64,000 nucleotides of DNA from Octopus vulgaris (Eukaryota): positions 128,154,001 through 128,218,000 of the forward strand of contig OX597816.1 in assembly GCA_951406725.2 (NCBI GenBank), read 5' to 3'. The position numbers and the translations under genes were made by a program. Shown here piece by piece: positions 5,804 through 57,158 of this stretch. The notes beneath the pieces were generated by a model. It saw only the letters and a program-made list of their open reading frames with translations. It searched no databases and was not told the origin of the DNA. Position 1 is the first letter of the stretch; every line of letters starts with the position of its first letter.

Positions 5804-5949
5804 CTCAACAGCTGTTTCTGGGAGCTCAGAATTATGTAATAGTTGTAATGTTCATAATTAGATGGTGGAATGTGCAAAAGTCATGGACATGCAACCAATA
5901 GATGCCTGCTTAGAGACATTAGTGTAATGCTGGCTTCCTTCATCAAGAG
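5804..5949 (-). ncRNA. degenerate hammerhead-like motif with long stem II (PLE-type)
   Basis: Minus: CTC-TTGATGA-[~120 nt imperfect stem, AGGAAGC..GCTCCCA]-GAA-ACAGCTGT-T-GAG. Confidence 0.4.
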
Positions 5950-6401
5950 AAAGGTTGACAAATAGCTGTGCACATCAGGATGCAAGAGACTTAAAGGTTG
6001 AATGGAAGAAGAGGAAGAGAGAAATAAAATACAAGGAGATGGGAGATACTGGCGGCTTAGGGAGGGGGAATGGAGAAGGAGAGGAAGAGCAAGGAAAAGT
6101 AAGAAAGAAATGACATAAAAAACATTAATATCACAAAATAGTCTGCATAAACAATAAAAAAAGCTAACTTCAACTACACAAAAATTTAAAAGATACAATG
6201 CAGTCACTAAGTAACAACTGACAAAGGAACACACCCACATAGTGTACAGTGGTAAACTTTTAAAATTGCACCAAATTAAGAACATGCCCATTAGCTGGAA
6301 ACTGTATAAAAAGTTAAACAAGTTAGATAAAACTTTGTTGGTATACATTGGTGCTACCTTCAAAGACTAATACACACAACACACTCTTTCTGGAATATAT
6401 T

Positions 6402-6767
6402 ACTCTTTACTTGTTTCAGTCATTTGACTGAGGCCATGCTGGAGCACCCCCTTTAATCGAGCAACTCGACCCTGGGACTTATTCTATCGGTCTCTTTTGC
6501 CGAACCGCTAAGTAACGGGGACGTAAACACACCAGCACTGGTTGTCTAGCAATGCTAGGGGGACAAACACAGACACACAAACACACACACGCATATATAT
6601 ACATATATACGACGGGCTTCTTTCAGTTTCCGTCTACCAAATCCACTCACAAGGCTTTGGTCGGCCCGAGGCTATAGTAGAAGACACTTGCCCAAGATGC
6701 CACGCAGTGGGACTGAACCCGGAACCATGTGGTTGGTAAACAAGCTACTTACCACACAGCCACTCCT
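6402..6767 (-). mobile_element. tRNA-derived SINE family A
   Basis: Head GGAGTGGCTGTGTGG with B box GGTTCAGTCCC, internal TA/TG microsatellite, tail CAGTCAAATGACTGAAACAAGTAAA. Confidence 0.9.
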
Positions 6768-8062
6768 ATATATATAAAAAAAAATACCTTTTTAAGCACA
6801 TCTATCTCTATGTATGTACTTATCTTTAATGTTGGAACATGGTTGCTTCACGATAGTGGTGATATAGTTGCCAAATCTTATATCCATCCATTCCCTTGAC
6901 ATTCTGTTCATCCAACTCTCTTTCTGCCCTATTCGTCCATCAGTCAACCCATTCATCCATCCATCTATATATCAATAGAACGCTTTACATTATTTTCTTT
7001 TGTAGTAAGTTATTACACAGCTGAAATTTATGCAAGCAAAACTTTAAGACATAAAAAGCCACTGTCACAGATAATATAAACAACATGCTGAAATACTAAA
7101 TCCATACAGCTATGCAAAATTACCTTCACTTAAATTTAACTGATAAGTGAACAACTGAGTGCTTTATTTCTTGACAATGCTGGAGTAATACATACATACA
7201 TAAAATATACATATATATATATAAAGTATTCTTTATACAGTAAATTAACAGAACATTAGCAGTGGCTCAAATTTCATGACTGGAAGTAACTGCTTTCACT
7301 TGGATTCAATGCAGATTTTCCATCAGGTCTACATTCTTCAGGCTACAAAATTAATTGATATTGACATTTTTGCAGGCTGAAGAAGGCAAATGTAATGAAA
7401 AACATTTATATACTCAGAGCATTATCAAGCTATGAAACTTGAATCATTGCTAATATTCCATTAATTTACTATGTAAAAGCTACTTTGTGGCCTCATATGA
7501 AATGAATGCTTTCACTTGTTGAATTTTACCCGCATGATAATCATTACTGTCATCATCATTTTAAATTATGTTTTACATGCTAGAATGCATTGCACAGTTA
7601 AAGGGAATCTGAAGGTTGGTAGGGCCTCATCTTGCTTCAATGTTTCAGTTCTGGCATGGTTTCTATGACAGGAAGCCCTTCCTAACAGCAACCATATCAC
7701 AGAATGTAATGGGTGCAATTTTCCATAGCACTAGCACTATATAGCTTGTCTAGCAATAAGCGAGAGATTAAAGAGTCCTCTCAAACTCTGCATTGTCATT
7801 GCTCGATTACAGAGTGTATTGGATGCTTTTTATCATGACACCTGCATTTGAAGACCACAAATTGAAATAGTAGCAGTGAGAGTAACAGAAAGTACCTGTA
7901 TACATTATCAATGTCACATACTAATGTATGTGAGTTGTTAAACGCTTTTAGGCTGCAGCGATTTATCCAGGGAATTTCTCTTTAAGACAGAGTATTAAAA
8001 GAAACACAGTATAATCCAAAGCCAGATAAAATAAATCACCCTGGCAGTGAATGAGAACAGAT

Positions 8063-8415
8063 ATCATCATCATCATTTAACGTCCGTTTTCCATGCTAGC
8101 ATGGGTTGGACGGTTTAACTGGGGTCTGTGAAGCCGGAAGGCTTCATCAGGCCCAGTCAGATTTGGCAGTGTTTCTACGGCTGGATGCCCTTCCTAACGC
8201 CAACCACTCCGCGAGTGTAGTGGGTATTTTTTACGTGCCACCTGCACAGGTGCTAGACAGAGCTGGCAAACGGCCACAAACGGATGGTGCTTTTACGTGT
8301 CACTGGCACGGGGCCAGGCGATGCTGGCAACGGACACGAACGGATGGTGCTTTTACGTGCCACCGACACGGGGGCCAGACAGAGCTGGCAAACGGCCACG
8401 AATGGACGGTGCTTT
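8063..8415 (-). mobile_element. RTE-LINE 3' UTR fragment with (GAT)n tail
   Basis: Matches the 3' end of the RTE copy at 31310-32815; about 3 internal ~60-bp units. Confidence 0.85.
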
Positions 8416-8451
8416 TATTTCATAATCCTTTCTGCTCATAGGTGGCTCATA

Positions 8452-8784
8452 CAGTAATACCTCACTTTATGAGGTCCTGCTTTATGAGACTCTGAACTAA
8501 ATACAAAGGTTTCCACTACCATAACAAATGCATCTGATTGTTACCAAGAAATTTGCAGAGAGCAAAGACAAGCTTCTTCTAAACAAACAACTCTAGACTT
8601 GTTTTTTTAAAAGAAATCTACAAGTCTGTCTATGAGTGCTTGTGAATTGGTGATCACATCTACAAGTGATGGCTTGCACATGTCTTGTGTGAGTGAAAGT
8701 GGGAAATTATTGCTCTGCTTTATGAGTCTTCACTTTATGAGCAGTCTCCAGGAACAAATTAACTTGTATATCAATACATTGCTG
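8452..8784. mobile_element. pogo/Tigger-like MITE
   Basis: TA|CAGTAATACCTCA ... TCAATACATTGCTG|TA; subterminal CTTTATGAG repeats. Confidence 0.55.
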
Positions 8785-8786
8785 TA

Positions 8787-9148
8787 CTCAATTGACACTT
8801 GAAACAAATTTGAATTGCTGGCCTGAAATATATACAGATTGTGTAAAAATCTATCTTCTGATGTGCAAAGGTACCACACAAATGAAACAAATTCAAATTT
8901 TGTGTGAGAAGCAGCTCTAAAATGTGAATATTATCAATATTTATGGCACACATGAAAAGAAACAACTGAAATATCTACATTTAGGCGCAGGAGTGGCTGT
9001 GTGGTAAGTAGCTTTCTAACCAACCACATGGTTCCGGGTTCAGTCCCACTGCGTGGCATCTTGGACAAGTGTCTTCTACTATAGCCTAGGGTCGACCAAT
9101 GCCTTGTGAGTGGATTTGGTAGACAGAAACTGAAAGAAGCCTGTTGTA

Positions 9149-9199
<51 letters not shown>

Positions 9200-9707
9200 T
9201 TGTGTGTCTGTGTTTGTCCCCCTAGCATTGCTAGACAACCGATGCTGGTGTGTTTACGTCCCCGTCACTTAGCGGTTCAGCAAAAGAGACCGATAGAATA
9301 AGTACTGGGCTTACAAAGAATAAGTCCCAGGGTCGATTTGCTCGACTACAGGCGGTGCTCCAGCATGGCCGCAGTCAAATGACTGAAACAAGTAAAAAGA
9401 GAGAGAGAAAGAGTATCTGCCATTCTCATTTTCTTCTGGGGTGATTTGTTTCCCCTGGCATTGACAGTTTATACTCTACCTCTTTAACAGGACCTTCTCT
9501 GGATGGAACATCACAGCTACAAGCATTTAACAATGCACACATACGTTAAATATGTAGCGTTGTTATTGTTTACATTATAGAACTGCTTCTAACAAAATTT
9601 GAATTTTCTTTTACATGTGCAGCACTTTTGCTCATTAGAGGATAAAATTTACACCATCTGTATATACTTCAGACCAGCAATTTGAATTATTCCAAGGGTG
9701 AATTGAG
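8787..9707. mobile_element. TA-flanked non-autonomous element with ~150-bp diverged TIRs, interrupted by a SINE
   Basis: TA|CTCAATTGACACTTG.. is inverted to ..CAAGGGTGAATTGAG|TA; arms ~8787-8920 and ~9575-9707 align by eye. Confidence 0.7.
8984..9410 (+). mobile_element. tRNA-derived SINE family A, full length
   Basis: A/B boxes, internal (TA)n, canonical tail. Confidence 0.9.
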
Positions 9708-10182
9708 TATATAGCATTGATGAGCAGAAATAACTGCGAAATTTCAATGTCTGTTGTTCTTGTTCACTTCCAGACTGATTTGTTTACCCTGGATTTTGAT
9801 ATATTTGCACAGCAACTCTAAATTAATGTCTATGAACAGTAAGCTAGTAAATATTATCTTCACAGGTAGTTTCACTTTCTACATGGGCAATGATGGTAAT
9901 GATATGCAAAGGAGCAAAAACAGTGCCTGCTTCTGAATGCATTTTTTCACAAGTAGTTATAAGACAATGCAACTTTCTCTATAGAATGTATGAGGCAAAT
10001 CCTTCAGATGAGTTTTTACTGATGGTAGTGCACTGAGTTAGTCAGTTTAACCACTATTTACACAGTAAGGATAAATGTATATTTATTAAACATACACAAA
10101 TATATCTATTTACAACATATCTGCAAATATTTTGTGTGCGTATTTTAGTTGATTACCATTCATACATATATACAGACATACA

Positions 10183-10218
<36 letters not shown>

Positions 10219-10221
10219 GAA

Positions 10222-10265
<44 letters not shown>

Positions 10266-10396
10266 GCATATATATATAGTCTGTCATTATTCAGTTTTAT
10301 TTTAAGACTTCTTGCCTATAGAGAAAGAGTCGGTTTCTAAATCCAAGGCTCCTTCATTGGAATTTCAACAACATCAACAGGGTATTTTTGTATGTA

Positions 10397-11658
10397 CAGG
10401 GGTTGGACAAAATAATGGAAACACCTTAAAATTTCAAACAAATTGATTTTAATATTGGGTAGGACCACATTTGGCAGTAATTACAGCTTGAATTCTACAA
10501 GGTATGAACTTGTACAAAGTTTGAATTGTTTCCAAAGAAATTTTTGTCCATTCTTCAGCTAAAACAGTCTCCAGTTCTTGTAGTGATGATGGTGGAGGAT
10601 ATCAAATCCTTACTTGTTTTTCTAAAATGCACCATAAATGTCCAATAATATTGAAATCTGGGGACTGTGGTGTCCAAATAAGATGTTCAACTTCACTAGA
10701 ATGTTCCTCGTGCCATTCAGTAACAACTTTAGCTGTATGAATTGATGTATTATCATCCTGAAAGACTGCGTTTCCCTCCGGAAACAGTTCCGCAACCATA
10801 GAATGAATTTGATTGGATAAAATGCTTAAATAGTCTTGGCTATTAATTCTGCCATGAAGGGAAACCATTGGGCCAGCAGATTTCCAAGATATAACCCTCC
10901 AGATCGTCACAGACACTCCTCTATGTTCAACAGTTGGAAGAAGGCAGTTTGGGTCAAATGCTTCTTTTGGCAGACTCTGCATGTATACCCGGCCAGTAGT
11001 CAGAAATAAGGTAAAGGATGACTCATCCAAGAAAATAACATTCTTCCACTGCTCTAGGGACTAATTCTGTAGGTTTTTACTCTGCTCTAAACACTTTACA
11101 ACGTTTGTTTTTGAAAGTAGTGGTTTTCTGATTGCAGCCCTCCTGTGAAATCCAGCTCTGTACAGCTCCTGGTAAACAGTTTTTGTGGAAACTGGGTTCT
11201 CGAGGTGGTCATTAAGCTCTGCAGTAAGTTTGGGAGCTGTACTCTTGTGATCCTTTCTAACAATTCGTGTAAGAGTCGGACAGTCCTTATCTGAGAGTTC
11301 TGGTTTTCTTCTGGAGTTTTTTTTCGATGAGGAGGTTTTTCCCTCTTTCTCAAAGGCTGTCATTACTTTCAAGACAGTACTTCTTGATAAAGCAAATATT
11401 TCGGCAGTTTTCATTATGCTAGTGCCTGCCAAAAATTTGACCTCTTTGAAAGTCCAATAGATCTATCATTTTAATGAATTTTAATTACCTTTTTCTGATC
11501 ATATCTGAAGAGAAACAGCAATTTTAGCAAAACATATTAAGCAACACTAAAAATAAATCAAGAAGCATAAAAATAAACAAGCTTTTGATGGTTTTATAGA
11601 TATTTCAAACTTATGATGCTATGATGCTAGACGTTTCCATTGTTTTGTCCAACCCTTG
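10397..11658 (-). mobile_element. full-length defective Tc1-like transposon
   Basis: TA|CAGGGGTTGGACAAAATAATGGAAAC ... GTTTCCATTGTTTTGTCCAACCCTTG|TA; HTH ORF 11061-11432; DESSF, FQDDN, SPDFNIIG motifs with the catalytic E mutated. Confidence 0.95.
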
Positions 11659-11767
11659 TATGTACATGTCCAATATTTGGAGTCAATGTATGAGCAGATA
11701 TGTATTTTTTGTTTTATTTATGTATTCTCATGCATATACTTGCATATCTAGACATGCACATACACAC

Positions 11768-12290
11768 ATCATCATCATCATCATCGTTTAGCGTCCGCTT
11801 TCCATGCTAGCATGGGTTGGACGGGTCAACTGGGGTCTGTGAAGCTGGAAGGCTTCGTCAGGCCCAGTCAGATCTGGCAGTGTTTCTACAGCTGGATGCC
11901 CTTCCTAACGCCAACCACTCCGCGAGTGTAGTGGGTGTTTTTTACGTGCCACCTGCACAGGTGCCAGACAGAGCTGGCGAACGGCCACGAACGGATGGTG
12001 CTTTTACGTGTCACCGGCACGGGGCCAGGCGATGCTGGCAACGGACACGAACGGATGGTGCTTTTACGTGCCACTGACACGGGGCCAGACAGAGCTGGCA
12101 AACGGCCTCGAACGGACGGTGCTTTTACGTGTCACCGGCACGGGGGCCAGCCAAGGCTGGCAACGGACGCGAACGGATGGTGCTTTTACGTGCCACCGAC
12201 ACGGTTGCCAGTCAGAGCTGGCAAACGGCCACGAGCAGACGGTGCTTTTACATGTCACCAGCACGGGGGCCAGCCGAGGCTGGCAACGGA
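11768..12290 (-). mobile_element. RTE-LINE 3' UTR fragment with ~6 tandem units
   Basis: (CAT)n end, CCATGCTAGCATGG, ~60-bp tandem units. Confidence 0.85.
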
Positions 12291-13499
12291 TAAACTTCTG
12301 AAAGGTTTTATAGATTTTAGCAGATCCAGTGAAGGCCTGAATCTGTAGTATTTGAATCAGCTTTCTGGTTTTGAGAAGCCTAATTTCTCTAGATTGGTAC
12401 TTTGGCAGTGTGTTACATATACCAGAGACCCACAGGTATAAATTTGATCTTGTAATCTGGTAAGAGTAACTGTAGATTTCTCAATAGTTCAGTGTAGATA
12501 TTTTCTTTCTCACTGATCTTTAGCTTTATGTTAGCATCTGCTGGGCAGCTGATTTCCACAACTGTAAAAAGTTTCTCTTCTTTGTCCCAAATCACTATGC
12601 CTGGAAGGGAGAAGTCACAGAGATGTAAAAGTAAAAAATATCCCCAGTCAAGGATACTAGTTTTACCAGTTTCTCAAAAATAGGGGAAGTATCAGACTAA
12701 GATAGGTATGTGTAACACAGTTCCATGATTGAATAAATAATATAGTTATAAGTAAGGTCCATTACCAGTTTCAAATGAGACTGTTCAATGATAATCTATG
12801 GCAAAGAATAGTGGAAGTTACCAGTTCCATTTCTGCATAAGGTGACACAAAGTGAGATAAACCGAGATAGACCACAAAACATTGGATAATGAAGCAAACT
12901 TCATAATTATGCAGTCATTTACATAAAAGTACACACACATATACATATAAGTGTGTTTGTGTGTGTATGTGCATGCATATATATGCATGCATGTATATAT
13001 ATATATATAAATATATACATATATGTGTGTGTATATATGTATGTATGTATGTATATATAAATACATACATATGCATATAAATATGTATATGTATATGTTT
13101 ACATATATGTATATATATATATACACCTACACACATATATATATATATACGCATAATATTTACATGCACGCATGCATACATACATATATATAACATGAGT
13201 GCAACAAATCTGAGCATGTATTACTAAAACATTACTGGAATTTTCTAAACATATTTTCACATTTTTATTGATTTTTGAGTTGTATGCATAAACACAGTTG
13301 CTTTTGTTAATCAATAAACTGTAAGTATTGATCATTCGAAATTTCAAAAAAAAAAAAAAAAAGAGAGAGAGAGAGAGAAAGAAAGAAAGATAGTGAAAGA
13401 AAAGAGATCAAACGAAAAACATCTTGTGGTTTTTAATCAAAAACTTTTGGGTTAAAAGGTAACTAACTTTAACAGAATAACATGATGTAAATTACAAAA

Positions 13500-13536
<37 letters not shown>

Positions 13537-14069
13537 GAAAAAGTACTTATAATAGAAGTTGGGTTTGGAACAAATATTTCCAAGAATTTATCTGTATTTT
13601 TTCCTATTTTCTAATATCAATGAAATCAGAGAAGGTATTCCTACTTTCATTTTGTAGTGGTTTTCCTTATGTTTTTTTTATACCTTTCTTAGTAATTGAA
13701 GAACGAACCACTGTGGAAAGGATAAAATATAATAACTGAATTAATTTTTTTTAATAGTCTGGTTTATGGTTTCAATTCTGGATGTTTACTGGAAATATTT
13801 TTAAAATTCTGAAGAAAAAAGATAACAAAAATACTAAATACATACCACCATATTCCATATTCTATGTACAAGTATTCAATATAAAAATTATACTGACACC
13901 GTGGCTTGCATATTATAACATGCGCAGACTACACACTGCTTGTCTTACAAATGTAATGAAATTAACTTTTTCATGTAAAGCATCTTAGGAGAAAACTTGA
14001 TGAATATAAAATGAATTTGTGTCAAGAGCAATAATATAATGAAATATAAAATCAAAATCATATTCGATA

Positions 14070-15857: not shown

Positions 15858-15907
<50 letters not shown>

Positions 15908-15914
15908 TATATAA

Positions 15915-16507
15915 CATACATGTAAGAGGAATGACCACTAGGTGGACTCCTAATATGCTAAATGTAGACCCCATATGGTCTGATCACTATGAAAAATAAT
16001 GTTTTTTAATCGGCAAGCTTCAATGCAGAAAATTATTTTCTGCAGTCATTTTCAGCTTTGGTGTGCCAAAACAAAGACATTTGAAATATATCACCAAATA
16101 TAATTGATAGAACTGTATGCATGTTCTCTCTCCGAAGGAGGTTTCATGCATAGTTCTGAAAATTATATTTTCTATGACGGTCACACCATGAGGATTTGTA
16201 GACATTTAAGTAATGTAAATGGTAACAATGAAACCATGGTATGTGACTAATCATTATATTTTCTATCTTTCCATTTGTCTTGTTCACTTTACATTCTGGC
16301 ATTTGCCGAATTTTCTTGAGAACAATTGTTCTTAGTGGCCAGACCATAAGGGATCTACATTTAGCATATTAGGAGTCCACCTAGTGATCATTCCTCTTAC
16401 ATGTATGTAATCTAATTTTCTGAATCTTCAGATTTTTTCACTATGCTAGGCCACTGGTTTAAATTGATATTAATTTAATTAATATCAATTTTTACCCTTA
16501 TTATTTA

Positions 16508-16510
<3 letters not shown>
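15915..16510 (+). mobile_element. Penelope-like terminal-repeat remnant with a partial inverted copy
   Basis: 15915-15990 is inverted to 16330-16410; HHR-like motif at 16180-16247; AT-rich end into (TA)n. Confidence 0.5.
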
Positions 16511-16543
<33 letters not shown>

Positions 16544-17412: not shown

Positions 17413-18978
17413 GAAAACACTGTTATTTTATTTCACACAGGTAGAAATATAGGAAAAATAGAAGTTGAAAATGCATTGAAAATAGTTAAAATATTTTTTA
17501 TTAACATATTTAATGCTTTAACTGGTTTCAGAGTTTACACTGATTCTCAAAGTTCAAATATAAAGACATGACTTATGCCACAGATGTTTTGCTTCTGACT
17601 AATGTTTGAAGCTTGCCCTATTTTTATAGGGAGTTCATAGCTCAAATTAGTTTATGTTTTGAATAGGATTTGATTGATAGAGGATAGTCACATGACTGGT
17701 CTTAGAATTTTTGTAGGCTCCTGGCTACCACCGTGTGTTAGTATCAAATGACAATGCTTAGTGTCATAAGGATGACACGGTTGACTGAACATGTCCAAAA
17801 AAAATCAATGCTCTGAATGTTTTCTGTCAAGTGTTTGTAGAGAATGAACACATGATTAAGTTTATAACCTTTTGTACGTTTCTCACTATGTTCATGCATT
17901 AGTGTCATGTGACAGTATATTTTGCACCTAAAAAGGTCAACACGGTTGAGGGAACATGTTTAGTTATAATCAAGGCACTTCAAATTTAATTTGTCTTATG
18001 CGAGAGTGACAGGAGTCGTTTGTATGTAGTTCAGTGGCAAAAGTTTAGGTTGTTAGCTGTGTAGCTTCCTCATGATAAGTAGCAGAATAAATTTTGTGTG
18101 TGAATAGTTATTTGTGTATGTACTCTGTTAATGTTTGTAATTTTGCATGAAAGTAGTTTTGTTTGGTTTATCCATGCTTCATCTGTGGTATTTGCAGAAC
18201 ATACGTAGAGTGGAAAGACCTAGAATTTAAGAGACTTATGTTTTGCACATATGTCTATGTGTCCACTCGGTGGAATCTGTCTAGTACTGGGGTCTTGTAT
18301 TTGTTGTCGGTGAATGATCAGTCTATTTCTAAGAGTAAGTTTTGTTTGACCTATATAATCTTCATCACATCCTTGATATTTGATAGTGTATATTAAATTC
18401 CTTGAAGAATATGTAAAGAGATTTTTTACAGTAAAAGTCTGTACTGATTTGAATTTGTATGTTGTGTCTTCAAAAAGGCTGATGTTGGTCGGACAATTGG
18501 GGCAGCCACACATTTTGACTGTTGGTGTAAGAATTATGGAAGGTAATTTAGCACTTTTGAGGGACTTTGATTGTCTTTTACTTTTCATTATTTTGTGTAT
18601 TTCGAGTGCTTGTTTCATTCTTGGATCTTGTTTTAGTAGTAGGATGCTCTGGTGGATAATATTGTAAACCTCTGTGTTTCTTGGGTTGTGTGTTGTAACA
18701 AAGGGTAGAGCATTGGATGTATCTGGAATGTTTTTCGCTTTTCCTAGTTCTTCAATATTTAATGCTTTGGCACATTCTATTCCATTGTCTATTATCATTA
18801 ATGGATATTATCTTTTAAGTAGGACTTGTTTTAGTTCCTAGATTCTTTTATTGGGAGTTTTAGAGTTTGAGACAATTGTGCAGATTCTTCTTGCTAGATT
18901 AAAGGGGATATTATTCTTTATGTGTCTGGAATGGTATAAGGCGAACAGTAAGTATTGTTTAGAATCTGTCTATTTAAA

Positions 18979-19017
18979 CTTTTTGAAAATCAGTGTAAAC
19001 TGTGAAACCAGTTAAAG
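18979..19017 (+). ncRNA. minimal type-I hammerhead ribozyme, U3-A8 core variant
   Basis: CTTT-TTGAAAA-T-CAGT(GTAA)ACTG-T-GAA-ACCAGT-T-AAAG; partner copy at 17515-17555 on minus. Confidence 0.65.
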
Positions 19018-19030
19018 CTTTAAATATATT

Positions 19031-19262
19031 TATTTCTCTATTGTCCACAAGGGGCTAAACACAGGAGGAACAAAACAAGGACAGACAAAGGGATTAAGTT
19101 GATTACATCGACTCCAGTGCATAACTGGTACTTATTTAATCGACCCCAAAAGGATGAAAGGAAAGGTCAACCGCAGCAGAATTTGAACTCAGAACGTAAA
19201 GATGGGCAAAATACCACTAAGTATTTCACCCAGCATGCTAATGATTCTGCCAGCTCGCTGCT
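19031..19262 (-). mobile_element. tRNA-derived SINE family B
   Basis: Head GCGAGCTGGCAGAA, B box GAGTTCAAATTC, core CTTTCATCCTTTTGGGGTCGAT..AAGTACCAG (resembles the Meta-type SINE core, from recall). Confidence 0.85.
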
Positions 19263-27981: not shown

Positions 27982-28057
27982 CTATCTATCTATCTATCTA
28001 TCTATATATATATATATGAAAGAAGGTTGGAAAATGCAATTTTAAAGATGCTTATTC

Positions 28058-28099
28058 ACTTGACCGGTTTCACTTTTTTAGAAAAAGATTGTCAAAAGT
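28058..28099 (-). ncRNA. minimal type-I hammerhead ribozyme, U3-A8 variant, GUC site
   Basis: Minus: ACTT-TTGACAA-T-CTTTTT(CTA)AAAAAG-T-GAA-ACCGGT-C-AAGT. Confidence 0.7.
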
Positions 28100-28282
28100 A
28101 AAATGTAAAGCTTTATATAAGCTTTGTTGTGTTAAGTACTGGTTGTCACAAAAGTATTAAAACACATATATACATTCTTTGATAATAATAAGAAAATGTT
28201 AAAAACAATTTACAAGAAAGTATTTAAGAAAATATTCAACAAAAAGTATTAGGAGTTCAATATAAATCATGTTTGTTTGGTA

Positions 28283-29554: not shown

Positions 29555-30812
29555 ATCATCATCATCATCATCATCATCGTTTAACGTCCGCTTTCCATGC
29601 TAGCATGGGTTGGACGGTTCAACTGGGGTCTGGGAAGCCCGAAGGCTGCACCAGGCCAGTCAGATGTGGCAGTGTTTCTACAGCTGGATGCCCTTCCTAA
29701 CGCCAACCACTCCGAGAGTGTAGTGGGTGATTTTATGTGCCACCGACACAGGTGCCAGACGAGGCTGGCAGACGGCCACACTCGGATGGTGTTTTTTATG
29801 TGCCACCGACACAGGTGCCAGACGAGGCTGGCAGACGGCCACGCTCGGATGGTGTTTTTTATGTGCCACCGACACAGGTGCCAGACGAGGCTGGCAGACG
29901 GCCACGCTCGGATGGTGTTTTTTATGTGCCACCGACACAGGTGCCAGACGAGGCTGGCAGACGGCCACGCTCGGATGGTGTTTTCTTATGTGTCACCGAC
30001 ACAGGTGCCAGACGAGGCTGGCCGGATGGTGTTTTCTTATGTGTCACCGACACAGGTGCCAGACGAGGCTGGCGGACGGCCACGCTCGGATGGTGTTTGT
30101 TACGTGCCCTCAGCACGGAGGCCAGTCATTGCGGTACTGGCTACGGTCACGTTCGGATGGTTTTCTTATGTGCCACCGGCACTGGTACCACAAGGATACA
30201 AATTCCATTGATGTTCATCTATTTTGATTTGGTTCGATTTGATTTGATACGATTCGATTCTCACTTGCCTCAACAAGTCTTCACAAGTGTCACAAGAAGG
30301 AAGGTATGCACAGGTGGACTGACTACGTCCCAGGTAGGGGCCACGGATTATGGCTTCACTAGTCTTGCCGGGTCTTCTCATGCACAGCATACTTCCATAG
30401 GTCTCGGTCTCTAGTCATTTCCATGGTGAGACCTAACGTCCGAAGGTCGTGCTTCACCACCTCGTCCCAGGTTTTCCTGGGTCTACCTCTTCCACGGGTT
30501 CCCTCAACTGCTAGGGATTGGCACTTTCTCACACACCTATCTTCATCCATTCTCGCCACATGACCATACCAGCGCAATCGTCTCTCTTGCACACAACAAC
30601 TGATGCTTCTTAGGTACAACATTTCTCTCAAGGTACTAACGCTCTGTCGAGTAAGTACACTGACATTACACATCTATCGGAGCATACTGGCTTCGTTCCT
30701 CACGAGCTTACGCATGTCCTCAGCAGTCACGGCCCATGTTTCACTGCCATGTAGCATAGCTGTTCGTACACATGCATCATACAGTCTGCCTTTTACTCTG
30801 AGCGAGAGGCCT
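29555..30812 (-). mobile_element. 5'-truncated RTE-clade LINE
   Basis: KGRLYDACVRTAMLHGSETW, RRLRWYGHVARMD, RGRGRPRKTW; 3' UTR with 63-bp tandem array and (GAT)n tail. Confidence 0.92.
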
Positions 30813-31029
30813 TTATATTTATAGATATGCATATATGTATATATATGCATATATTTATAGATATGCACATATATATATATATATATATGCATATATTTAT
30901 AGATATGCACACATATATATATATATATATTTATAGATATGCACACACACACATATATATATATGCATATATTTATAGATATGCACACACACACATATAT
31001 ATATATATATGCATATATTTATAGATATG

Positions 31030-31062
<33 letters not shown>

Positions 31063-31104
31063 CCCTCTCTCTCTTTCGGAGAGGCACAAGCACCTACACG
31101 TACA

Positions 31105-31262
31105 TGTACACACACGGCAGTAACTTCCGCCTGCCAAATTCAATCACAAAGCTTCGGTCGGCTCGGGGCCATAGCAGAAGACACCCACCCAAAGTGCCAC
31201 GCAGTGGGACTGAACCCGAAACCATGTAGCTAGGAAGCAAGCTCCCTAACCACACAGCCATG

Positions 31263-31266
<4 letters not shown>
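31105..31266 (-). mobile_element. SINE family A, 5' half
   Basis: Head with A/B boxes. Confidence 0.75.
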
Positions 31267-31301
<35 letters not shown>

Positions 31302-31309
31302 ACACATAT

Positions 31310-32815
31310 ATGTGAACTAGAGGAGAATTTTCGAGTGTGGAAACAAGGATTAGAATCTAAGGGCCTTAGAGTCAACCTAGCTAAAACCAAAGTCCTAATA
31401 AGTAGGAAGGCAGGCAAACCACAAATCCCTTCAGCTAGATGCCCTGCTCAATCTGTAGAAAAGGTGTAGGTAGAAACTCTACAAGATGTACCCAGTATAA
31501 GCTATGGACACATAAGAGGGGCAGCAATATCAAGTGAAGGCTAACTGGGAAGATAATTTTTCTATGTGGCAGATGCTCCGGAGCAATAAATGCTGAAAAT
31601 GTTCAGAGAACAACTTCTACCACATTCCAGGGAGAAAAACTAGAAGTAGTTGATAGCTTCTGTTACCTAGGTGACCAAGTCAGTAGAAGGGGAGGGTGTG
31701 CTGAAAGTGTAGCTGCTAGAATAAGAATAGCCTGGGCAAAGTTCAGAGAGCTCTTACCTCTGCTGGTGACAAAGGGCCTCTCGCTCAGAGTAAAAGGTAG
31801 ACTGTACAACGCATGTGTACGAACAGCCATGCTACATGGCAGTGAAACATGGGCCGTGACCGCTGAGGACATGCGTAAGCTAGCAAGGAATGAAGCCAGC
31901 ATGCTCCGATGGATGTGTAATGTCAGTGTGCATACTCAACAGAGTGTTAGTGCCTTGGGAGAAATGTTGGACCTAAGAAGCATCAGATATGGTGTGCAAG
32001 AGAGATGACTGCACTGATATGGTCACGCGGTGAGAATGGATGTGGATAGCTGTGAGAAAATGCGCCACACCCTAGCAGTTGAGGGAACCTGTGGAAGAGA
32101 TAGACCCAGGAAGACCTGGGAGGAGGTGGTGAAGCATGACCTTCAAACATTGGGCCTCACCGAGGCAATAACTAGCAACCGAGACCTTTGGAAATATGCT
32201 GTGCTTGAGAAGACTCAGCAAGCACAAGTGAGACCATAACCTTGTGGCCTATGCCAGGGGTGTAACCAGTCCACTTATGCGTACCTTTCCTTCATTGGAC
32301 ACTAAACTCTGCTTGCGAAGACCTGTTGAGGCAAGTGAAATCAAAATCAAATTCGATGACTGGCATCCATGCTAGTGGAGCGCTAAGAGTACCATACAAG
32401 CGAGATTATTGCCAGAGCAACAAGCTGGCCTCCATGGCGATGGCAGGTAAAAAACACCATTCAAACGTGATTGTTACCTGCATCGCCTTACTGGCATTTG
32501 TGCTGGTGGCACGTGAAAAAACATTTGAGAGAGGTCATTGCCAGTGCCGCTGGACTGGCTCCTGTGCAGGTGGCACATAAAAAGCACCATTTAAGCATGG
32601 CTGTTGCTAGTACCACTTGACTGGCCATCATATCAGTGACATGTAAAAGCACCTACAACACTCTCAGAGTGGTTAGCGTGAGAAAGGGCATCCAGCTGTA
32701 GAAAATCTGCCAGATCAGATTGGAGTCTGGTGCAGCCATCTGGCTCGCCAGACCTCAGTCAAATCGTCCAACCCATGCTAGCATGGAAAGTGGACGTTAA
32801 ACGATGATGATGATA
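31310..32815 (+). mobile_element. 5'-truncated RTE-clade LINE, same family as 29555-30812
   Basis: GLRVNLAKTKV, FCYLG, ARIRIAWAKF, LHGSETW, RPRKTW, with stops; (GAT)n tail. Confidence 0.92.
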
Positions 32816-34616: not shown

Positions 34617-34672
34617 GTCTTACAGCTGTTTCTGGAATATCTCAGAGTATGAGATATTCTGTCATCAGAGAC
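34617..34672 (-). ncRNA. type-I hammerhead ribozyme with canonical core
   Basis: Minus: GTCT-CTGATGA-CA-GAATATCTCA(TACTC)TGAGATATTC-CA-GAA-ACAGCTGT-A-AGAC; lies next to the inverted repeat at 34375-34475. Confidence 0.8.
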
Positions 34673-40522: not shown

Positions 40523-40639
40523 TGAGGGTAAAATTAATTAATCAATTTCACCAAGTGTTCAGTATGTAAAAGGACCATTTAAGGCGAATTCAAAATAAGC
40601 CCTAATTATATAATATATATATATATATATACTTTAATT

Positions 40640-40875
40640 AAAAGCAGCAGAAATTTAACAAAAGCTGTTACTCAGAGTTTCTCATTCCCGTTTGTTGGAC
40701 AGTTTTGTTAAAATAGGTTCTAGTTTAGCAAAACTGCCCGATAAACGGGAACGTGAAACTCTGAGTAACAGCTTTTGTTATATTTCTGCTGCTTTTAAAT
40801 AAAGCATATTACTCTACCTCTAGTGTTTGAGTACTCTTTTTCCACCTTGTTTCACATTTATGTGCTTACTCCGGT
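40640..40875. mobile_element. PLE-like inverted terminal repeat carrying two hammerhead-like copies
   Basis: Arms 40640-40712 and 40724-40797; HHR-like at 40734-40771 (plus) and 40665-40702 (minus). Confidence 0.65.
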
Positions 40876-46491: not shown

Positions 46492-46499
46492 GATAATTT

Positions 46500-48500: not shown

Positions 48501-49391
48501 TGATGATTTGTCCTTTCTATCATCATTGTCACTAAGGAACATATCTGTATACAGAGATAGACTGAGACATATGACCTCTCATTAAGGATTGGAGGTCAAA
48601 CAAATGCTGAATGCAGGTGGAGTTCAAACAGTAGAGATTGCTGCTGAATGTAAAGAAATAGAGATGACAGATTTTGGGTTAGAATGATCAGACATGTTTA
48701 TAGCTGCTTCCCTTCCCAGATGAGAGTGGGAAATTATAGATAATGTAGATGCCAACTTTTAGAAACAAGATGGAATATAGAGTATGCTCTGTATTAGAGA
48801 TAGGAATACCTTGTTGAGTAGTAATATGGCTTACATGTTACTAGAAGAAGATAATGGCTAGAATGAATGTTTAACAAAAGCTCACTGATGTTGGTATAGA
48901 AAAGGAAATTTATCCAGCAGATTGATTATTGCTCTTTTTATTAGAATTTTTCATAATTTTTACAAGAACAACTTATTACAACTATATATTTACACAAATA
49001 AAAACATGATAGTCAGCTATAGAACAGGTGCGTCATTATATAAAAGTGGGAGAATTTTACTTTTAATATCTTTAAATTGCCTCAAGCAAAAGCTGAACAA
49101 TCATCTAATGTAAGTATATAATTCCAAGTTCCAAATATTTCGGCATCCAATAATATGATAGTCTAGTTGAGATATATTTAGCCTGATCTTTCAGCATCTA
49201 ATAAATAGCATGTTAACCTTGTTCAGATATTAGTACTCTAGTCAATAAAGTATCCAACAAGAGAACTGAGAGGGCAAGTCCAATTTTATGTTGCTACAAT
49301 GAAATTATTTTAATCAGTTCTCACAAGAATTAATGCACCTTAAAGGCATCTCAGTTTATTAATACAGGATACTGCATGAAATGAAACTTAC

Positions 49392-49520
49392 TGTTCTCTC
49401 TTTTGATGTATTCTGTTTTGGTTTTTTTCTTTTGTCTTCTTAATATTCTTTACAACTGATTGAGTTAGGTTATAAAAATTATTGGCAGATGGTAGAATTT
49501 CTAAGCCCATTTGATCACTC
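49392..49520 (-). CDS. candidate host-gene coding exon 2 (129 bp), product unknown
   Basis: TTTTTATCTGCAG|G AGT GAT CAA ATG..AGA GAA CA|GTAAGT; open frame (M)SDQMGLEILPSANNFYNLTQSVVKNIKKTKEKNQNRIHQKRE; alternative in-frame acceptor at 49552. Confidence 0.6.
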
Positions 49521-51411
49521 CTGCAGATAAAAACTATTTTCAAAGACAAGTTCTGTAAAGAATAAGAAAACAAAATGTTAAAGAATATAACGAGCAAAAA
49601 GATTGAATGAAAATGTAATAAAGCTAATAATAGTTCATTGTCATATTTTTTAAAAATTCCATAAAAGTTTCATTAGCCAAAGGAATATCAAACTATAATT
49701 TTTCAAGTTTAGTATAATTCTGAATGCAGATATTTGTTTCCTGTTGGATTAATATAAAGTATTATTAAAGGAATGCATGATGTTCAAACAACTGCATAAA
49801 CCATTATCCCTGTTTCCAGAATATCTTAGTGAGCATCTGTCAGTATGCATGAGTCATATCTAAAATATATCAAACTTCAAGAGATATAAAGCATCGTATT
49901 ACCAAGATATCATTTGGTTCTTTTTTTTGTTTTTTTAAATTAATTTTAGTCATGAAATAAGGAATTCAAAATTTTAATTAGATTAGTTATGATAATTAGA
50001 TACTCAGTTGGAAACAAAGATTAGAACTGAAGCCATTGAAGGAAGCCTTGTGGCTAAGTATTATTAATATAATGAAGGAATCTCTTCCAACGGAATCTTA
50101 TTGACAACCTTATTAGAAGAAAGAAGGTTAAGAGAGTAAACTGAGAAAGCAAGTTAAAGAAAGAAAGAAAAGATCATAGAAAAGAAAAAAAACAATAAAG
50201 AATGGATGACTGTTCTCTATTATTCATCAGAAACATCTGAAATTCCCTTTTATATTAAAAGCACTAAACTAGAATTAGATTCTAAATTGCTAAAATCTGA
50301 AGGAAACTGGGGCTTAACAAAAATCTGTAAAGAACCAGGGTCTCAGATTGGATGATCAACTTTGAACTCAATATCTATTAATTAATGAGAGCTGAATTTA
50401 CATCTGGATAGGTAAGCAGTTTTCACAGATAACATTCACTGGAGGAATTAGTCTTCATCGCTAATTAAACTGAGGAATGCAGAAATATAATAAAACGTCT
50501 ACAGCAGATGTGAGCTCATAACCTATAAAATGGTTGTCCATTTTTACTTCAATCAAGCAATTATTATTGCACAGAATTTAATAATTTTGTTTCAATAAAA
50601 ATAAATTTGCTCTGTTGGAACATTTCAATTTGAAAATGAAATATAATTTTACACATATTATTGCTTGTAACAGTCACAAAAGAAATTGTGTCTATAATTT
50701 GATGTGATCTTTGGGTTGAAGATAAAAAAAAAACTAGAATTGAAGACCCGAGTAATAATTTTTGAAGCTGACTTGGAATAAAAATGAAATTTTTGACTTA
50801 AAAAAATAGAATAAAAATATCATAAAAATAAATAAAAGAGGAAACAATATGGAAATAGATAACAAGAAGTTACATTGTGTTTATGGAAGAAATTCTTTGT
50901 TGGTAATACGAAAAATTATAAATTTTTAGTTTAATCTTGTGAAGTGAGTATTCTATAAAGTGCAATGAGGAAGTACTTTTTACATTATATATGACAAGTA
51001 GAGAAATGCTGTGTTGGAACAGACTCATCTAACCCATACCAGCATAGAAAACTGGTTGTAAAAACAATGATGATGGTGATATATTTACTTGGAGCAGGAA
51101 TTTTTGCTCCTTTGCCACTTTTAGGCCTTCTTAGACAGATGAGTTTGATGCAGTTTCTTTTTTAAACTTTTAGTCTGGAAAGAAGGTAGCACTTATGATC
51201 TCTTATAGGGTTTCTGAGACTGATGGGAAGGAATAAGGTAACCTCAAACTGGAGAGTCCCGATCAAGGGTCTGCAACAGGGTGGATGATACTACTAAAAG
51301 TATCCCATGTGCCAGGTGTTGGTGTGGAATCAGGTGATAAAATTAAGTACTCCACACTAAGTGAACAACCCAATTGTGCTCAGCTTTAACATCCATTGGT
51401 TGATACTTTAA

Positions 51412-51629
51412 TCCTTTAAAATTTAAATTGTCCATATCCGGCCCAACATTTTCTACCTGCTTTATGTTCAAACTGGTCAGATCTGGCTTCTCACACCTAC
51501 CAAACAATGCCTTTAATAAAGAAATATAATCATCATTGAAATCCCAAAGCTACATGATAATACATAATTAAATGACAACTGTGAATAAATAAGCATTACA
51601 TTTGACAGAGTAATCTGAATGCTAAAGGG
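51412..51629. mobile_element. piggyBac-like MITE
   Basis: TTAA|TCCTTTAAAATT ... AATGCTAAAGGG|TTTA. Confidence 0.6.
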
Positions 51630-52535
51630 TTTAGGAAGAACTAAGGAAGTGAAAGGATTTAAAGAGGTAAGTCAAGGATGTTTGTGCATTTAAGTACCAT
51701 CTCACGTATTTGATTAATAAATGTTGGTTGCACTTGATCATTGAAGGTCAGCAACTTATCACAGTAAAAGTACTTTCTTATTCTGTAGAAGCTTAGTCTT
51801 TGACCATGTGAGATATTCAAAGATTACGAGGCTGAACATTTGTAGTTACCTTAAAGAAATGGTTCATGTTGTTCAACCCAAAGTCATCTCTGATGGAATA
51901 GACATTTGATCAAAATTATTCTACCTGTAACTTTCCCATATTTTATTCAGATAGAGTGTATCTTGGACCACATTATCAAATATAACAACATCTTTAAGAT
52001 GAGGGGATGTGATATGAAGGAGATTTTAGCTGTTATATTTAGTATGTTAAGTACTCTCCTTGAAACTCCTTCATTGGCTTGCATTTCCAGTGCAAATGAT
52101 AACAGACTACTCTTGATATAAAGCAGATTTATATAACCTTTGCTATATCATGATGCAATATAGCAATGAATAGAGAAGACTTAATAATAAAACACTTAAA
52201 AGAAATGAGAATTTGTGGAGACAAGTTAAAAATTATAATTTAGTTGAAAGAGTATTTATGTATCAAATACTTCAACTAAAAAAAAAAAGCTGCACTGGAA
52301 TTATTATATAGAATGAATGTGGTTAATAAATTCCATAAGGTGGAAGTATGAATAGGTTTTAAAAGAGAAACCAGGATATCAATTGTCAAAGAATAAGGAG
52401 TCCTAAACTACTCAGTTTTTGCCTTGTAAATTATAGTTGAGAAAAAGTAACGAGATAATTCTCTGGTGAACTCTAACTTATACATTGTTTTCCTTATTTT
52501 GATTATATAAAAGATATATTTTATCCCTTTTACAA

Positions 52536-53040
52536 GGTGGTGAGCTGGCAGAATTGTTAGCATGTTAGGCAAATTGCTTAGTGGCATTTCATCCATCTTT
52601 ACGTTCTGAGTTCAAATTCTGCTGAGGTTGACTTTGCCTTTCATATAAATGACTAGTCCCTTCCCCAAAAATTTGAGGCCTTGTGCCTCTAATAGAAAAG
52701 ATTTTTCTCACTTTTACTGCAAGATACTAGTTTCTATCCCCTCTGTCATACTCTGATCTATAATCATCAGACATAAAATTGCCCCTCACAATACTACTCC
52801 CACCTCAGTTAAGAAGTCTTGTCTTGCAAGTTATTTGGTGATCTTGCTGGTGCTGGGGTTATGTACAAAGCGCCCAGTATAGTCTGTAAAGTAGTTGGCA
52901 TTAGGAAGGGTACCCAGCCATAGAAACTATGCCAAAGCTGAAAGTACAGCTTGTCACAGTCCTCTGATTCATTACCACCTGTCAAACCATCCAACCCACG
53001 CCAGCATGGAAGACAGATATTAAAACAATTAGGATGAGGA
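52536..53040 (+). mobile_element. SINE family B (52536-52702) and an old RTE-tail fragment (52810-53040)
   Basis: Family motifs: GAGCTGGCAGAA head; TTGGCATTAGGAAGGG..CCAACCCACGCCAGCATGGAA. Confidence 0.7.
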
Positions 53041-54764
53041 AGATCCATCATCTTGATTATAATTTTTTGTATAACAGTTAATAATAGTGTTGCTGCATTA
53101 GACATTACTTTGTTATACTTAGTGTACTTAAAATAATTGACTACACAAGCTATTATCATAATGATATCCAAATCTGATGCAGCAACTTTTCTTGCCTTTT
53201 AATGCAGCAAATTTTTCCTTGCTTGCATGACCATAATTTCATAACCACATTTATACTGATCCACTACAGCTTACCAATTTGTTGGTTATTGGTTCAATTA
53301 AAAGTCAGCTTTCAATACACAATTTAATCATATTTCTAAATTCGCAACATCTCATGCCTATTCATTTCTCTATTACTGTAGCTAAGTGTGCTTGAATTAT
53401 TGCAAACACACCTCTCACCTAATTATATCTTCATTCAAATAAATACATTGTCTTGCAATTTGAATCCTTCAAAACTGATTTTGCCCTTGAACAAAACAAA
53501 TCAAATTTAAGTGTTAAAATTTCAGAGATTTTTGGTTTATATCAAAGGCAGCTTTTACATCTCAATGCTGCAGTCATTGCATTTATTGTTTAAGTCGAAA
53601 ATTGGAATGACAGTATGAGAGAATAGGTAGAAAGAACAGGAAAGAGTGTAACAGGAAAAAGTTCAATTCTAGTAGAGACTTTACTGTTATTTTCATTATC
53701 TATCAAGTAAATGCACTAATATACCTTTTAAGTCATATGCCAACTAAAGTGTTACTCACCACGAAATTTTTGTGTTAGTGTGTGGGAAGTGAGAGGGAAA
53801 TTAAAGCTTTTTCTTGTTAGCACATAAAATGAACATAAAATATATTTTTCTACTAGGAAGTTAATTCCATCCAAGCTCAGTCGGTTTAGTTAGAGTAAAG
53901 TGAAGAATTGCTTGTTTATGAACCTCAGGAAGATCCTTTAGAATGTAAATACACACATGCTCATACACACACACACACACAACCTTATGGAATTTATCAA
54001 CTGCATTCATTTTATATATACACATGTATATTATCATTTTTGGAATGCAACAATATTTGTATCCTACCTATCTCTTATACACACTAACATCTATTTGTAT
54101 GTGTGTGTGTGTTTGTATATATATCTATATGGAAATGCAAAACACAAAACAAGAATACAAGAGATGTTCATTGTCAATATTAGTTTGACACCCAAAGAAA
54201 AAAGAAAAGAGTAAATGGTACTATGTCTTGAACACAGTTCTTCCAGTGCTAGAGAAAAGTCAAGGAGAAACTCAGAAGTGTAGCAAGAGAAGGAGATAAA
54301 GAAAGAAAAGTGTCAGGAAAACCCCAGTAGGAATCAGCTTGCATGTTCAGTCTATATGTGCATGCATATGTGTGTGTGTGCATGTACATGTGTGTGTCTG
54401 CTTGTGAGTGTGTATACACATGTCCATGTATACATGCACAGCTCCCATTCTCTTTAACAGAAAAAGACGAGTACAATATATAAAATTCTTTCAAATAATG
54501 GTTTCTTACATAAGCACAGAACCAGAAATATTCAGGGAAGTAAAACTAATTCAAAAATTACAATGCTCATGACTTATTCAACAACATTAACAATGTGAAA
54601 GAATGGAATTAGTTCTCAGTGGGAATTGAAATTAGACAAAACTTTCCACCCAACTAGTGTCTACATAAAGTACACTGAAATTCAGATGTCAAAAGGCATA
54701 TTGAACACAGGATATAGTTCCAGAATAAATATTTTGCTTCTGTTATGAGTACACCATTTTCACT

Positions 54765-55072
54765 CGGTACGTAAAAAGCACCATCTGAACGTGGCCAATG
54801 CCAGCACCACCTTGACTGGCTTCCGTGCCAGTGGCACGTAAAAAGCACCAACTGATCATGGCCATTACCAGCCTCGCCTGGCACCTGTAACGGTGACACA
54901 TAAAAAGCACCCACTACATTCATGGAGTGGTTGGCATCAGGAGGGGCATCCAGCTGTAGAAACACTACCAGATCAGACTGGAGCCTGGTGCTGCCTCCTG
55001 GTTTCCCAGACCCTGGTTGAACCGTCCAACCCATGCTAGCATGGAAAACGGACGTTAAACGATGATGATGAT
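54765..55072 (+). mobile_element. RTE-LINE 3' UTR fragment
   Basis: Tandem units plus canonical (GAT)n end. Confidence 0.85.
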
Positions 55073-55399
55073 AAAAATCAAAGAAATTATGATCTATGAA
55101 TGGTTAAGATGTTTTTTTCAGTTTTACTTCATATTTATCTTTGTGGGGTTTTTTTTTTAAGTAGTTTGATCTGGAGAAAGGGATTGTTTTCATAGCCTTC
55201 TCAGGCTCTTCAAAACCAATGAGATTGATTATACCATTTGGTATTTGTTATAACACTTAGCATTCTGAGTTCAAATCCTAATAAGGTCAACTTTGCCTTT
55301 CATCCTTCACAGGTTGATATACTTGACTGTTCCCTTTCCCCAAAGTTTTGACCTTGTGTCTATATGAAAAAAAAAAATCAATGTTCTTGAACCAATGCA

Positions 55400-56560
55400 A
55401 GTTGATAGTTACCAGAAAGAATAGGAGTAGGGAGGGTATTCTAGAGATGTGATGTTCTATGGAGATGGAAGAATTGGATTTAGTAGTTTGTGCAGGAATT
55501 TGAGAGGAGTAAATACAATATGAATGAGAAGAGGAGAAACAAGTGAGCTATGAGGAACTGAGTGAAGGTGACAGTGATATAAGAACAACCAGCTCCAAAG
55601 AGCCGTGGTCAAAGTAGTAGTGATAGGTAGAATGAAAAAGCAGCACACCTGTAGGCCAGAGTTTAGAGAGTGTTAATGAATTACTTCATGCCAAACGACA
55701 TTAGGTGACCCCCCCACTTTTGTCTTTGATGTTATCTAAAATATCTATATGAAAAGGAGCAACCCTATCCCAAATATGAGAGAAGTATTCCCGTGTAAGT
55801 TTCTTTAAGATTTGAAGGATTGGTGGTTGATGTGGATGGTGGGAAAGATGTTCAGATTCTGAAGAAGGTCAGCTTTGTGATGAAACCTTTGCTAAGTAGA
55901 GGATGTGTAATTGCCAGGAAAGTTCTTCAGTGAAAGAGAGACCTAATATTTGTGGTGAATTTGAGGGTTCTGGTGGCATACTGTTTACATTTAGAACAGG
56001 AATATGATATCGTTTTTATTGTGTGTAGTTATGTCTTTGTGTTATTGAAAGGAACAAGATTGGCACAGTTACTTTGTAGAATGTTTTCAAAGACTATAAT
56101 CAATAAGTTAAAGCAGGTTTAGCATATGATAGCTGTGAATAATGCTTGAATGCATAAAGTCTGAGAGGAACAAAAGATGGTACTATCTGTATAGAAATGG
56201 ATATGTTTGAATTTAATCCCCCTATGACTTTTATTGAGTATTATGACTTTTATTGAGTATCTTGACTTTTATTAGGTAGTTCAGCTTTTATTGGTTACTA
56301 CTTTGGAAGATGTAGGCAATTGCCCTCAACTAAATTTTAATCACTGTATTTGGTTGGTTACTGCTACTAGATTATTAAAAGAACAGATGAAGACAAGGAA
56401 TTTAGTATCAGGATTAAAAAAAAAAAAGGCTAGACTTACTACCCAGCGTTGCCAGGTAAAGTATTCATGGAATTGTTTGTCAGTTTGTAGAATAGGAATT
56501 CATGGACTTATTTAATTGGAACTGTCCAAACAATAGTCATCAATTTAATGTCTGAAGAAA
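55400..56560 (-). mobile_element. decayed CR1-group LINE RT fragment
   Basis: Minus LTREYFSHIWDRVAPFHIDILDNI at ~55730-55800. Confidence 0.55.
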
Positions 56561-56719
56561 ATTGTGAGTATGAATACATTGTCTGAAAGGATATTGATAA
56601 TGTTTTCTGTAATAAAGAATAGAGACAACTTTACCTCTTGGTTATTTAAAGGGGAACGTTTCTGGTAGATCTATGTCAGTGTGTGTGTGTAGGTCAAAAA
56701 GACAACGTTTTTTTTTCCT

Positions 56720-56750
<31 letters not shown>

Positions 56751-56853
56751 AAGACTGTATGTGCATATATATCACAGATAGCGTACGTGTGTTTGTGTTA
56801 ATAGAGTTCTAGTATTATTAAGATGAATACATTGTCTGAAAGGATATTGATAA

Positions 56854-57158
56854 TTATGGAGATGTACTTGCATAGCAAGTGACTTGATCTGAGATCATGC
56901 ACTGAACAAAAACAATTCAGCATGGGAGATGCTTGTAAGCCATTTAAGAACACACTAAAACCCTTAGTTTCACTTCAACATTTAAATTTAGTTTGTGTCA
57001 AAATATTTTCGTCACTTTGAAACCACAACCTGTTTACTGGCAAAACTTCGTGAGCGTCGAAAATATTCTTGACACAAATTAAATTTAAATGTTGAAGTGA
57101 AACTAAGGGTTTTTGTGTGTTCTTAAATGGTTTACAAACATATTCCACGCTACAGTTC
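56854..57158. mobile_element. 305-bp PLE-like insertion with internal inverted repeat and 10-bp TSD
   Basis: ATATTGATAA at 56844-56853 and 57159-57168; arms ~56930-57012 and ~57057-57141. Confidence 0.7.

Follow-up and report, generated by a model that had tools for sequence, protein, structure and literature searches.

The stretch of Octopus vulgaris DNA analysed here (contig OX597816.1, assembly GCA_951406725.2, positions 128,154,001 to 128,218,000 of the forward strand; hereafter the window, 64,000 nucleotides (nt) in full) is AT-rich repeat DNA of a 2.8-Gb genome, with (TA)n arrays, short interspersed nuclear element (SINE)-like repeats and transposon fragments. A sequence-only reading had claimed about nine hammerhead ribozyme folds in it and had attributed them to Penelope-like elements (PLEs). 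We found all nine at the positions and with the letters given for them, and the minimal type I fold with a palindromic stem III was borne out, palindromes being present in all seven families to which the folds belong. The nine folds are decaying copies of small hammerhead motifs from seven repeat families, here called A to G. Since each fold is a member of a dispersed repeat family (395-2,363 first-look candidates per fold in the genome), the folds are not chance structures.

Family A occurs twice in the window. On the minus strand, a 5'-truncated PLE (17413-18978) was recognized by tblastn; it comprises a reverse transcriptase (RT) thumb, a CX4CxxC linker, a GIY-YIG endonuclease, a 3' untranslated region, the hammerhead and a tail, and ends at a (TA)n array. 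Its hammerhead (17515-17555, minus strand) lies in the 3' pseudo-long terminal repeat (pLTR) and has a U3-A8 core and a stem III palindrome broken by CpG decay. An inverted, hammerhead-bearing piece on the plus strand (18969-19033, fold at 18979-19017) abuts the 5' truncation of this element. The hammerhead of family B (28055-28102, minus strand, fold starting at 28058) combines an intact U3-A8 core with a 7-bp stem I and an ACCGGU palindrome, and its tail reaches to ~28015. Family C is represented on the minus strand at 34617-34672, with a CUGAUGA core and the palindrome ACAGCUGU. Two family D arms stand head to head: the left arm (40625-40712, minus strand, fold at 40665-40702) shows double CpG decay including G5A and has a short tail to (TA)n, and the right arm (40717-40875, plus strand, fold at 40734-40771) has C3.A8 by decay and a long tail to (TA)n. 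A short copy of family E (56853-57048, minus strand) consists of the hammerhead at 56996-57042 and a ~144-nt tail, and beside it lies an inverted family E piece (57053-57170, plus strand) which holds the 3' half of the hammerhead only and was absent from the earlier reading. The hammerhead of family F (16180-16247, plus strand) has a 2-nt insertion in a core that is canonical in its family. That of family G (5804-5949, minus strand) has a loop II of ~100 nt and a C3U change in the window copy.

A strict descriptor (NUGANNA, a Watson-Crick 3-8 pair, stems I and II and a near-palindromic stem III) detected two loci in the window, 18979 and 28055-28102, versus 0.1 +/- 0.3 in 40 local shuffles. 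It misses 34617 because stem II is offset in that copy. With a loose descriptor we obtained 6 matches in the window versus 0.95 per shuffled window. Among the Rfam 15 matches listed for the window (150 of 179) and all 118 at six family loci there was no hammerhead, only microsatellite-driven matches of microRNA type.

Positions 3 and 8 make a tertiary contact in the active hammerhead fold. In a wider search this pair was left free: 80 evenly spaced 10-kb stretches of the genome (800 kb) were scanned with a descriptor unconstrained at positions 3, 4 and 8. Twenty matches were found versus 0, 1, 0, 1 and 0 in five shuffles, an approximately fifty-fold excess. A Watson-Crick 3-8 pair was present in 19 of the 20 (8 C-G, 7 U-A, 4 G-C), with the reservation that the matches are non-independent and that the four G-C matches are one family. 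Extrapolated to the genome, 20 near-perfect folds per 800 kb give an estimate of ~65,000. Across all examined loci, 183 descriptor matches fell into 50 clusters, many of which are further families. It is hardly conceivable that the folds arise by chance in AT-rich, palindrome-rich repeats. The loose descriptor does find about one match per shuffled window and one of the 20 random-sample matches is chance-like, but against this stand the excess just given and a core-only pattern for family E that matched the genome 11,340 times versus 232 times in the control (a minority of the matches being other repeats). Moreover, lineages that are unrelated to one another carry the motif at an equivalent position with respect to their PLE genes, family E and a 781-amino-acid (aa) PLE protein described below sharing only 22-24%.

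For each family, 26-73 other copies were aligned; they are the best matches to the window copy and hence biased towards it. We countered this bias with exact genome patterns in which positions 3, 4, 5, 7 and 8 were free, and counted the matches listed by hand. U3-A8 was found in 53 of 57 pattern matches of family A and in 95 of the 100 matches listed for family B (403 in total). C3-G8 is commonest in family C, where U4 occurs in 66 and C4 in 32 of the 100 matches listed (259 in total); the idea that this family was ancestrally C4 throughout was rejected on the strength of the U4 count. Family D yielded 7,496 pattern matches and none in the control, and among the 100 matches listed C3-G8 occurs in 96, U4 in 55 and C4 in 44. 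With positions 3 and 8 free, the pattern for family E matched 4,785 times, and the 100 matches listed read GUGAACA in 93 and G3-C8 in 96 cases. Family F has CUGANGA in 11 of 14 matches and a Watson-Crick 3-8 pair in 13 of 14; family G, judged by alignment only, has C3-G8 in 19 of 29 other copies. Position 4 is U in A, B, E, F and G. G5, A6, A9, G12, A13 and A14 are kept at family level in all seven families and are broken in the window copies 40665, 56996 and 16180. The three-way junction with stems I and II and A15.1-U16.1 was recovered by descriptor matches for intact copies of A to F, and by alignment only for G. Canonical CUGANGA searches would, as anticipated, miss A, B, E and the C4 subfamilies.

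The family core is intact in only four window copies (34617, 28058, 18979 and 17515), and the remaining five show decay when compared with their families. Copy 40734 has C3.A8 versus CCGACGA in its subfamily and copy 40665 carries G5A and G8A, both cores deriving from CCGACGA via CpG transitions. G5A separates 56996 from its family core GUGAACA, a 2-nt core insertion separates 16180 from CUGANGA, and C3U separates 5804 from CUGAYGA. Departures at position 3 or 8 within families are single, uncompensated changes, as expected of dead copies. The odd window cores CCGAUAA, CCAACAA, GUAAACA and CCAUGA are products of post-insertion decay and not compensated variants. That they are functional natural variants themselves is highly improbable: their letters are present in the window, but they are rare or absent in their families (GUAAACA in 2 of the 100 matches listed, CCAACAA in 2 of 73), the insertion of 16180 is missing from the commonest letters of 33 family F copies, the family D changes are CpG transitions and several of the changes fall at G5. 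The claim that several families use compensated C-G, U-A and G-C cores holds at family level; it fails for CCGAUAA, CCAACAA and GUAAACA, which had been taken as examples of it, and the G-C core becomes apparent only from the family as a whole. The 3-8 covariation is real and lies between families, not within them.

Further G3-C8 or A3-U8 families were sought with a loose genome pattern, which was uninformative: it matched 31,369 times versus 35,336 times in the control. Two more families were seen in passing: another U4C family with a CCGACGA core and an ACGU palindrome (L077:2332 and nine other loci), and a U3-A8 family with a GC-rich stem II, of which locus L300 holds three copies.

We then linked the motifs to PLE genes. 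In families A, C, D and E the motif lies 0.6-1.1 kb behind a GIY-YIG endonuclease gene, and in A, D and E an RT is present as well. The family A fragment of the window (18978-18184) matches an intact 781-aa PLE protein (tblastn, 46%, E 5e-62); this RT-thumb and GIY-YIG fragment is followed 0.63 kb on by the hammerhead and then by the tail to (TA)n, and homology among family A copies reaches as far as 1,400 nt before the hammerhead. Of 148 matches to GIY-YIG in a genome search, many come from a young family whose frames coding for RT and endonuclease (RT-EN) are 781 aa long. That family has a U3-A8 hammerhead 0.87 kb after the stop, and its tail aligns with the tails of A and B. Tail homology to A and to the intact 781-aa PLE suggests a PLE origin for family B as well.

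RT and/or endonuclease frames lie between the motifs of four head-to-head family D pairs spaced 3-4 kb; a fifth pair, which is tail-to-tail, has no such frame inside. An open reading frame (ORF) with RT and GIY-YIG, assigned by motif and without a Pfam match, lies 1.06 kb upstream of the family D motif in L381. For family C, one head-to-head pair encloses a related endonuclease, and a GIY-YIG-like gene with a CxCX5C linker lies 0.86 kb upstream of the motif (L411); the link concerns the endonuclease part only. Four of 20 further family E loci share 1.3-2.0 kb upstream of the motif (L392 sequence common to L396), and in L392 a 530-aa open RT and GIY-YIG frame ends 1.1 kb before it. When the family E endonuclease was searched in the genome, 37 of 150 scored copies shared one score. 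One frame measured 1,025 aa, and in this copy the G3-C8 motif occurs twice, at the 3' end and within an inverted piece at the 5' end. No linked PLE gene was detected for B, F and G in ~30 loci each. The attribution to PLEs thus stands by gene linkage for A, C, D and E and is probable by tail homology for B; for F and G no such link emerged from these loci. By motif, C and D appear Hydra-like and A and E Neptune/Nematis-like. We saw 5' truncation, inverted 5' pieces, two-ended tails and (TA)n targets alike. Close motif pairs are mostly head to head (E, D); in the window none of the folds lies in a tandem array, and head-to-tail repeats of short hammerhead units, as in non-LTR retrozymes, were not found there. 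An intact Neptune-like PLE in L241 and L242 has a separate upstream frame (333-359 aa open) that overlaps its 781-aa RT-EN frame, and its pLTR contains repeated motifs which we take to be CCAAT- and CRE-like.

Family E departs from the consensus core at positions 3 and 8 only. It keeps G5, A6, A9, GAAA and U16.1, together with a stem II of 5 bp that begins with G10.1-C11.1, a stem I of 5-7 bp and an extra base after A9. Two random changes among 11 core positions would give a complementary 3-8 pair with a chance of ~1 in 165, a figure that is post hoc and concerns one event. In contigs of four sequencing runs labelled as four organisms, no other letter reached at least 5% at any position of the E core, and the E tail had the same two ends; a metagenome scan gave one weak match. 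A sister family, E' (P0006), matches E at 52% at the amino acid level and is young, with intact 1,311-1,312-aa frames and 3,382 pattern matches; other relatives of E come from echinoderms, cnidarians and gastropods. Its tail and N-terminus are homologous to those of E, C3-G8 occurs in 98 of its 100 matches listed, and its stem II is the same as that of E with one compensated pair. Homology of the E and E' hammerheads is suggested by this stem II likeness and by position. In family E, on a young PLE, the core pair is swapped (G-C for C-G), and this variant is likely self-cutting.

Several further observations concern family E. An RT-EN fragment upstream of E in L253 (2400-4700) was considered as the gene of E itself and rejected, since it belongs to another family (97% to L226/L232). 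It is joined mid-endonuclease to the E 3' region, which makes the locus a chimera or a nested insertion, possibly produced by template switching. L249:1000-4300, a tandem repeat of near-identical 535-nt units that includes an inverted one, matches the E pattern but has no stem II and is not a hammerhead. A long non-coding E derivative (L244:52-1450, L348-L377) consists of the hammerhead, the ORF start and then ~1.2 kb; it ends in a GC-rich hairpin and CTAG before (TA)n, has variable 5' ends and gave 1,376 first-look candidates. Many E copies (L258:4490-4517 among them) start ~20 nt before the core, after a branch-point-like and a pyrimidine-AG motif, possibly a transcription start or a splice acceptor. 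In L248, within a duplicated 6.2-kb unit, an E copy abuts sequence that resembles intronless coding sequence on the opposite strand; it lies on the minus strand, immediately upstream of both E copies.

Minimal type I hammerheads of metazoan PLEs, including U3-A8 families in Schistosoma, have been described (Cervera and de la Pena 2014, PMC4209133). As far as the accessible parts of that paper go, the octopus motifs share with them the pLTR position, the short stem I, the extra base between 9 and 10.1, the palindromic stem III, the many solo copies and the opposite-strand pairs. They differ in that G3-C8 and U4C families were not found in those parts, in that most octopus families have a 6-9-nt palindrome rather than none, and in the ~100-nt loop II of G. 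Natural U3-A8 is also known from Perreault et al. 2011 (PMC3088659), who cite U4C from a viroid and report that U4C lowers activity; natural G3-C8 is not named in the section of the text consulted. PAc, a Poseidon element of Anolis, was studied by Frangieh et al. 2024 (PMC11167929); in the portion consulted, reverse transcription starts internally on uncleaved RNA. Like the octopus elements, PAc carries its hammerhead close to where the ORF begins, has a tail that ends at two points within the ORF, targets AT-rich DNA and uses an uncleaved template. Unlike family E, it has a natural C3-G8 core, its G3-C8 form being an engineered C3G/G8C double mutant that partly restores protein-assisted cleavage, and the E motif lies wholly upstream of the start codon. 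In the PLE scheme of Craig et al. 2021 (PMC8557442), as far as available, the CX2-5CxxC linker of A, the 781-aa family, E and E' fits the Neptune/Nematis clade. C has CxCX5C, and D, with a CxCX5C variant, CxxC and CxH around E and N residues and no CCHH, is Hydra-like; (TA)n targeting and inverted 5' pieces are shared as well. In the texts searched, G3-C8 was found in engineered forms only. As far as checked, the fixed G3-C8 family with its C3-G8 sister and the recurrent U4C subfamilies would be new, and PLE minimal hammerheads and U3-A8 cores are known.

In E and E', the motif precedes the start codon of the following unit by ~60-105 nt, and the tail ends fall within the first part of that unit's ORF. 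Copies terminate 30-150 nt downstream of the motif at one or two fixed positions, beside (TA)n and often as head-to-head inverted pairs. We propose that the endonuclease nicks (TA)n and that reverse transcription would start inside the tail and run back through the uncut hammerhead. Such an internal start on uncut RNA would account for the abundance of short copies that extend across the cut site. Most events would stop early and leave tens of thousands of short hammerhead-bearing copies, which would decay mostly at CpG; selection would act only in transposing master lineages, where positions 3 and 8 would change as a pair, from C-G to U-A and from C-G to G-C. PLE hammerheads with a very short stem III reportedly cleave as dimers, a finding ascribed to Lunse and colleagues in 2017 and cited in the review PMC6765202. 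According to energy models, in which stem II was incompletely drawn for C and F, the active monomer lies above the minimum-energy fold in all nine copies, and the modelled dimer lies 10-21 kcal/mol below one active monomer in all nine. In six of the nine copies the cofold minimum contains palindrome pairing between the two strands, and the dimer lies below two monomer minima in four (A, B, D1 and D2). Because the active monomer is above its minimum and the active dimer is the cofold minimum in none of the nine, slow, dimer- or protein-assisted cleavage is the best reading. We consider it probable that the family motifs, that of E with its G3-C8 pair included, cut RNA in this way.

Several results weigh against such cleavage. 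The dimer of E is not favoured over two monomer minima (-28.8 versus -30.8), and the active dimer is nowhere the cofold minimum. U4C is fixed in two D subfamilies despite its reported effect on activity. G3-C8 is one lineage and one event. In E', C9 occurs in 95 of the 100 matches listed (A9 being kept in three listed copies), stem III is non-palindromic (L406:870-930, L407, L410), and MAFFT did not align the E and E' motifs, which differ by 40 nt in length. Of 51 family matches in random sequence, 31 contain the hammerhead from end to end and one starts at the cut site. In an alternative reading, the motifs descend from hammerheads but now serve mainly as a folded signal (for protein binding or template positioning) or persist as slowly degrading relics. 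The 3-8 pair would then owe its retention to shape or to a former phase of catalysis, and cleavage would be irrelevant to transposition. The 3,382 matches of E' despite A9C and palindrome loss speak for it, as do the U4C subfamilies of D and C and the missing pile-up of copy ends at the cut site. So do published data, as far as the sources were accessible: catalytic mutants insert normally in vitro with no reads ending at the cut (PMC11167929), and Naiads proliferate without canonical hammerheads (PMC8557442). On the other side, the 3-8 contact of the active fold is kept unasked in all but one of the random-sample matches, and all seven window families conserve G5, G12 and A15.1-U16.1 at the level of the family. 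We regard this main alternative as less likely and prefer slow, assisted cleavage.

The function of PLE hammerheads has been called unclear (PMC8557442), and cleavage is dispensable in vitro (PMC11167929), as stated in the sections available. That a master lineage changed twice, at precisely positions 3 and 8, argues for selection on the active fold. The thriving A9C sister argues for a loosely constrained rate: young and widespread as E' is, a damaged core does not stop spread. As E and E' both have long open frames, a direct test of the role of the hammerhead is feasible. More tentatively, family E may be a natural, working G3-C8 hammerhead on a retrotransposon that was active recently and has >11,000 copies; alongside the C3-G8/A9C sister and the U4 and C4 subfamilies of D, it could then form a natural series that tests the importance of cleavage for PLE transposition. 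Standard searches miss these motifs, and the Rfam matches listed include none.

The remaining repeats of the window comprise fragments of Mariner/Tc1-type transposases (2774-3256 and 10602-11462; Pfam DDE_3, Transposase_1 and HTH_Tnp_Tc3_2) and a coding fragment like that of a long interspersed nuclear element (30364-32222), which forms an inverted duplication with 451-nt arms and has no Pfam identification. Related GC-rich minisatellite arrays of 61-63-nt units lie at 8229-8417, 11940-12290 and 29731-30108.

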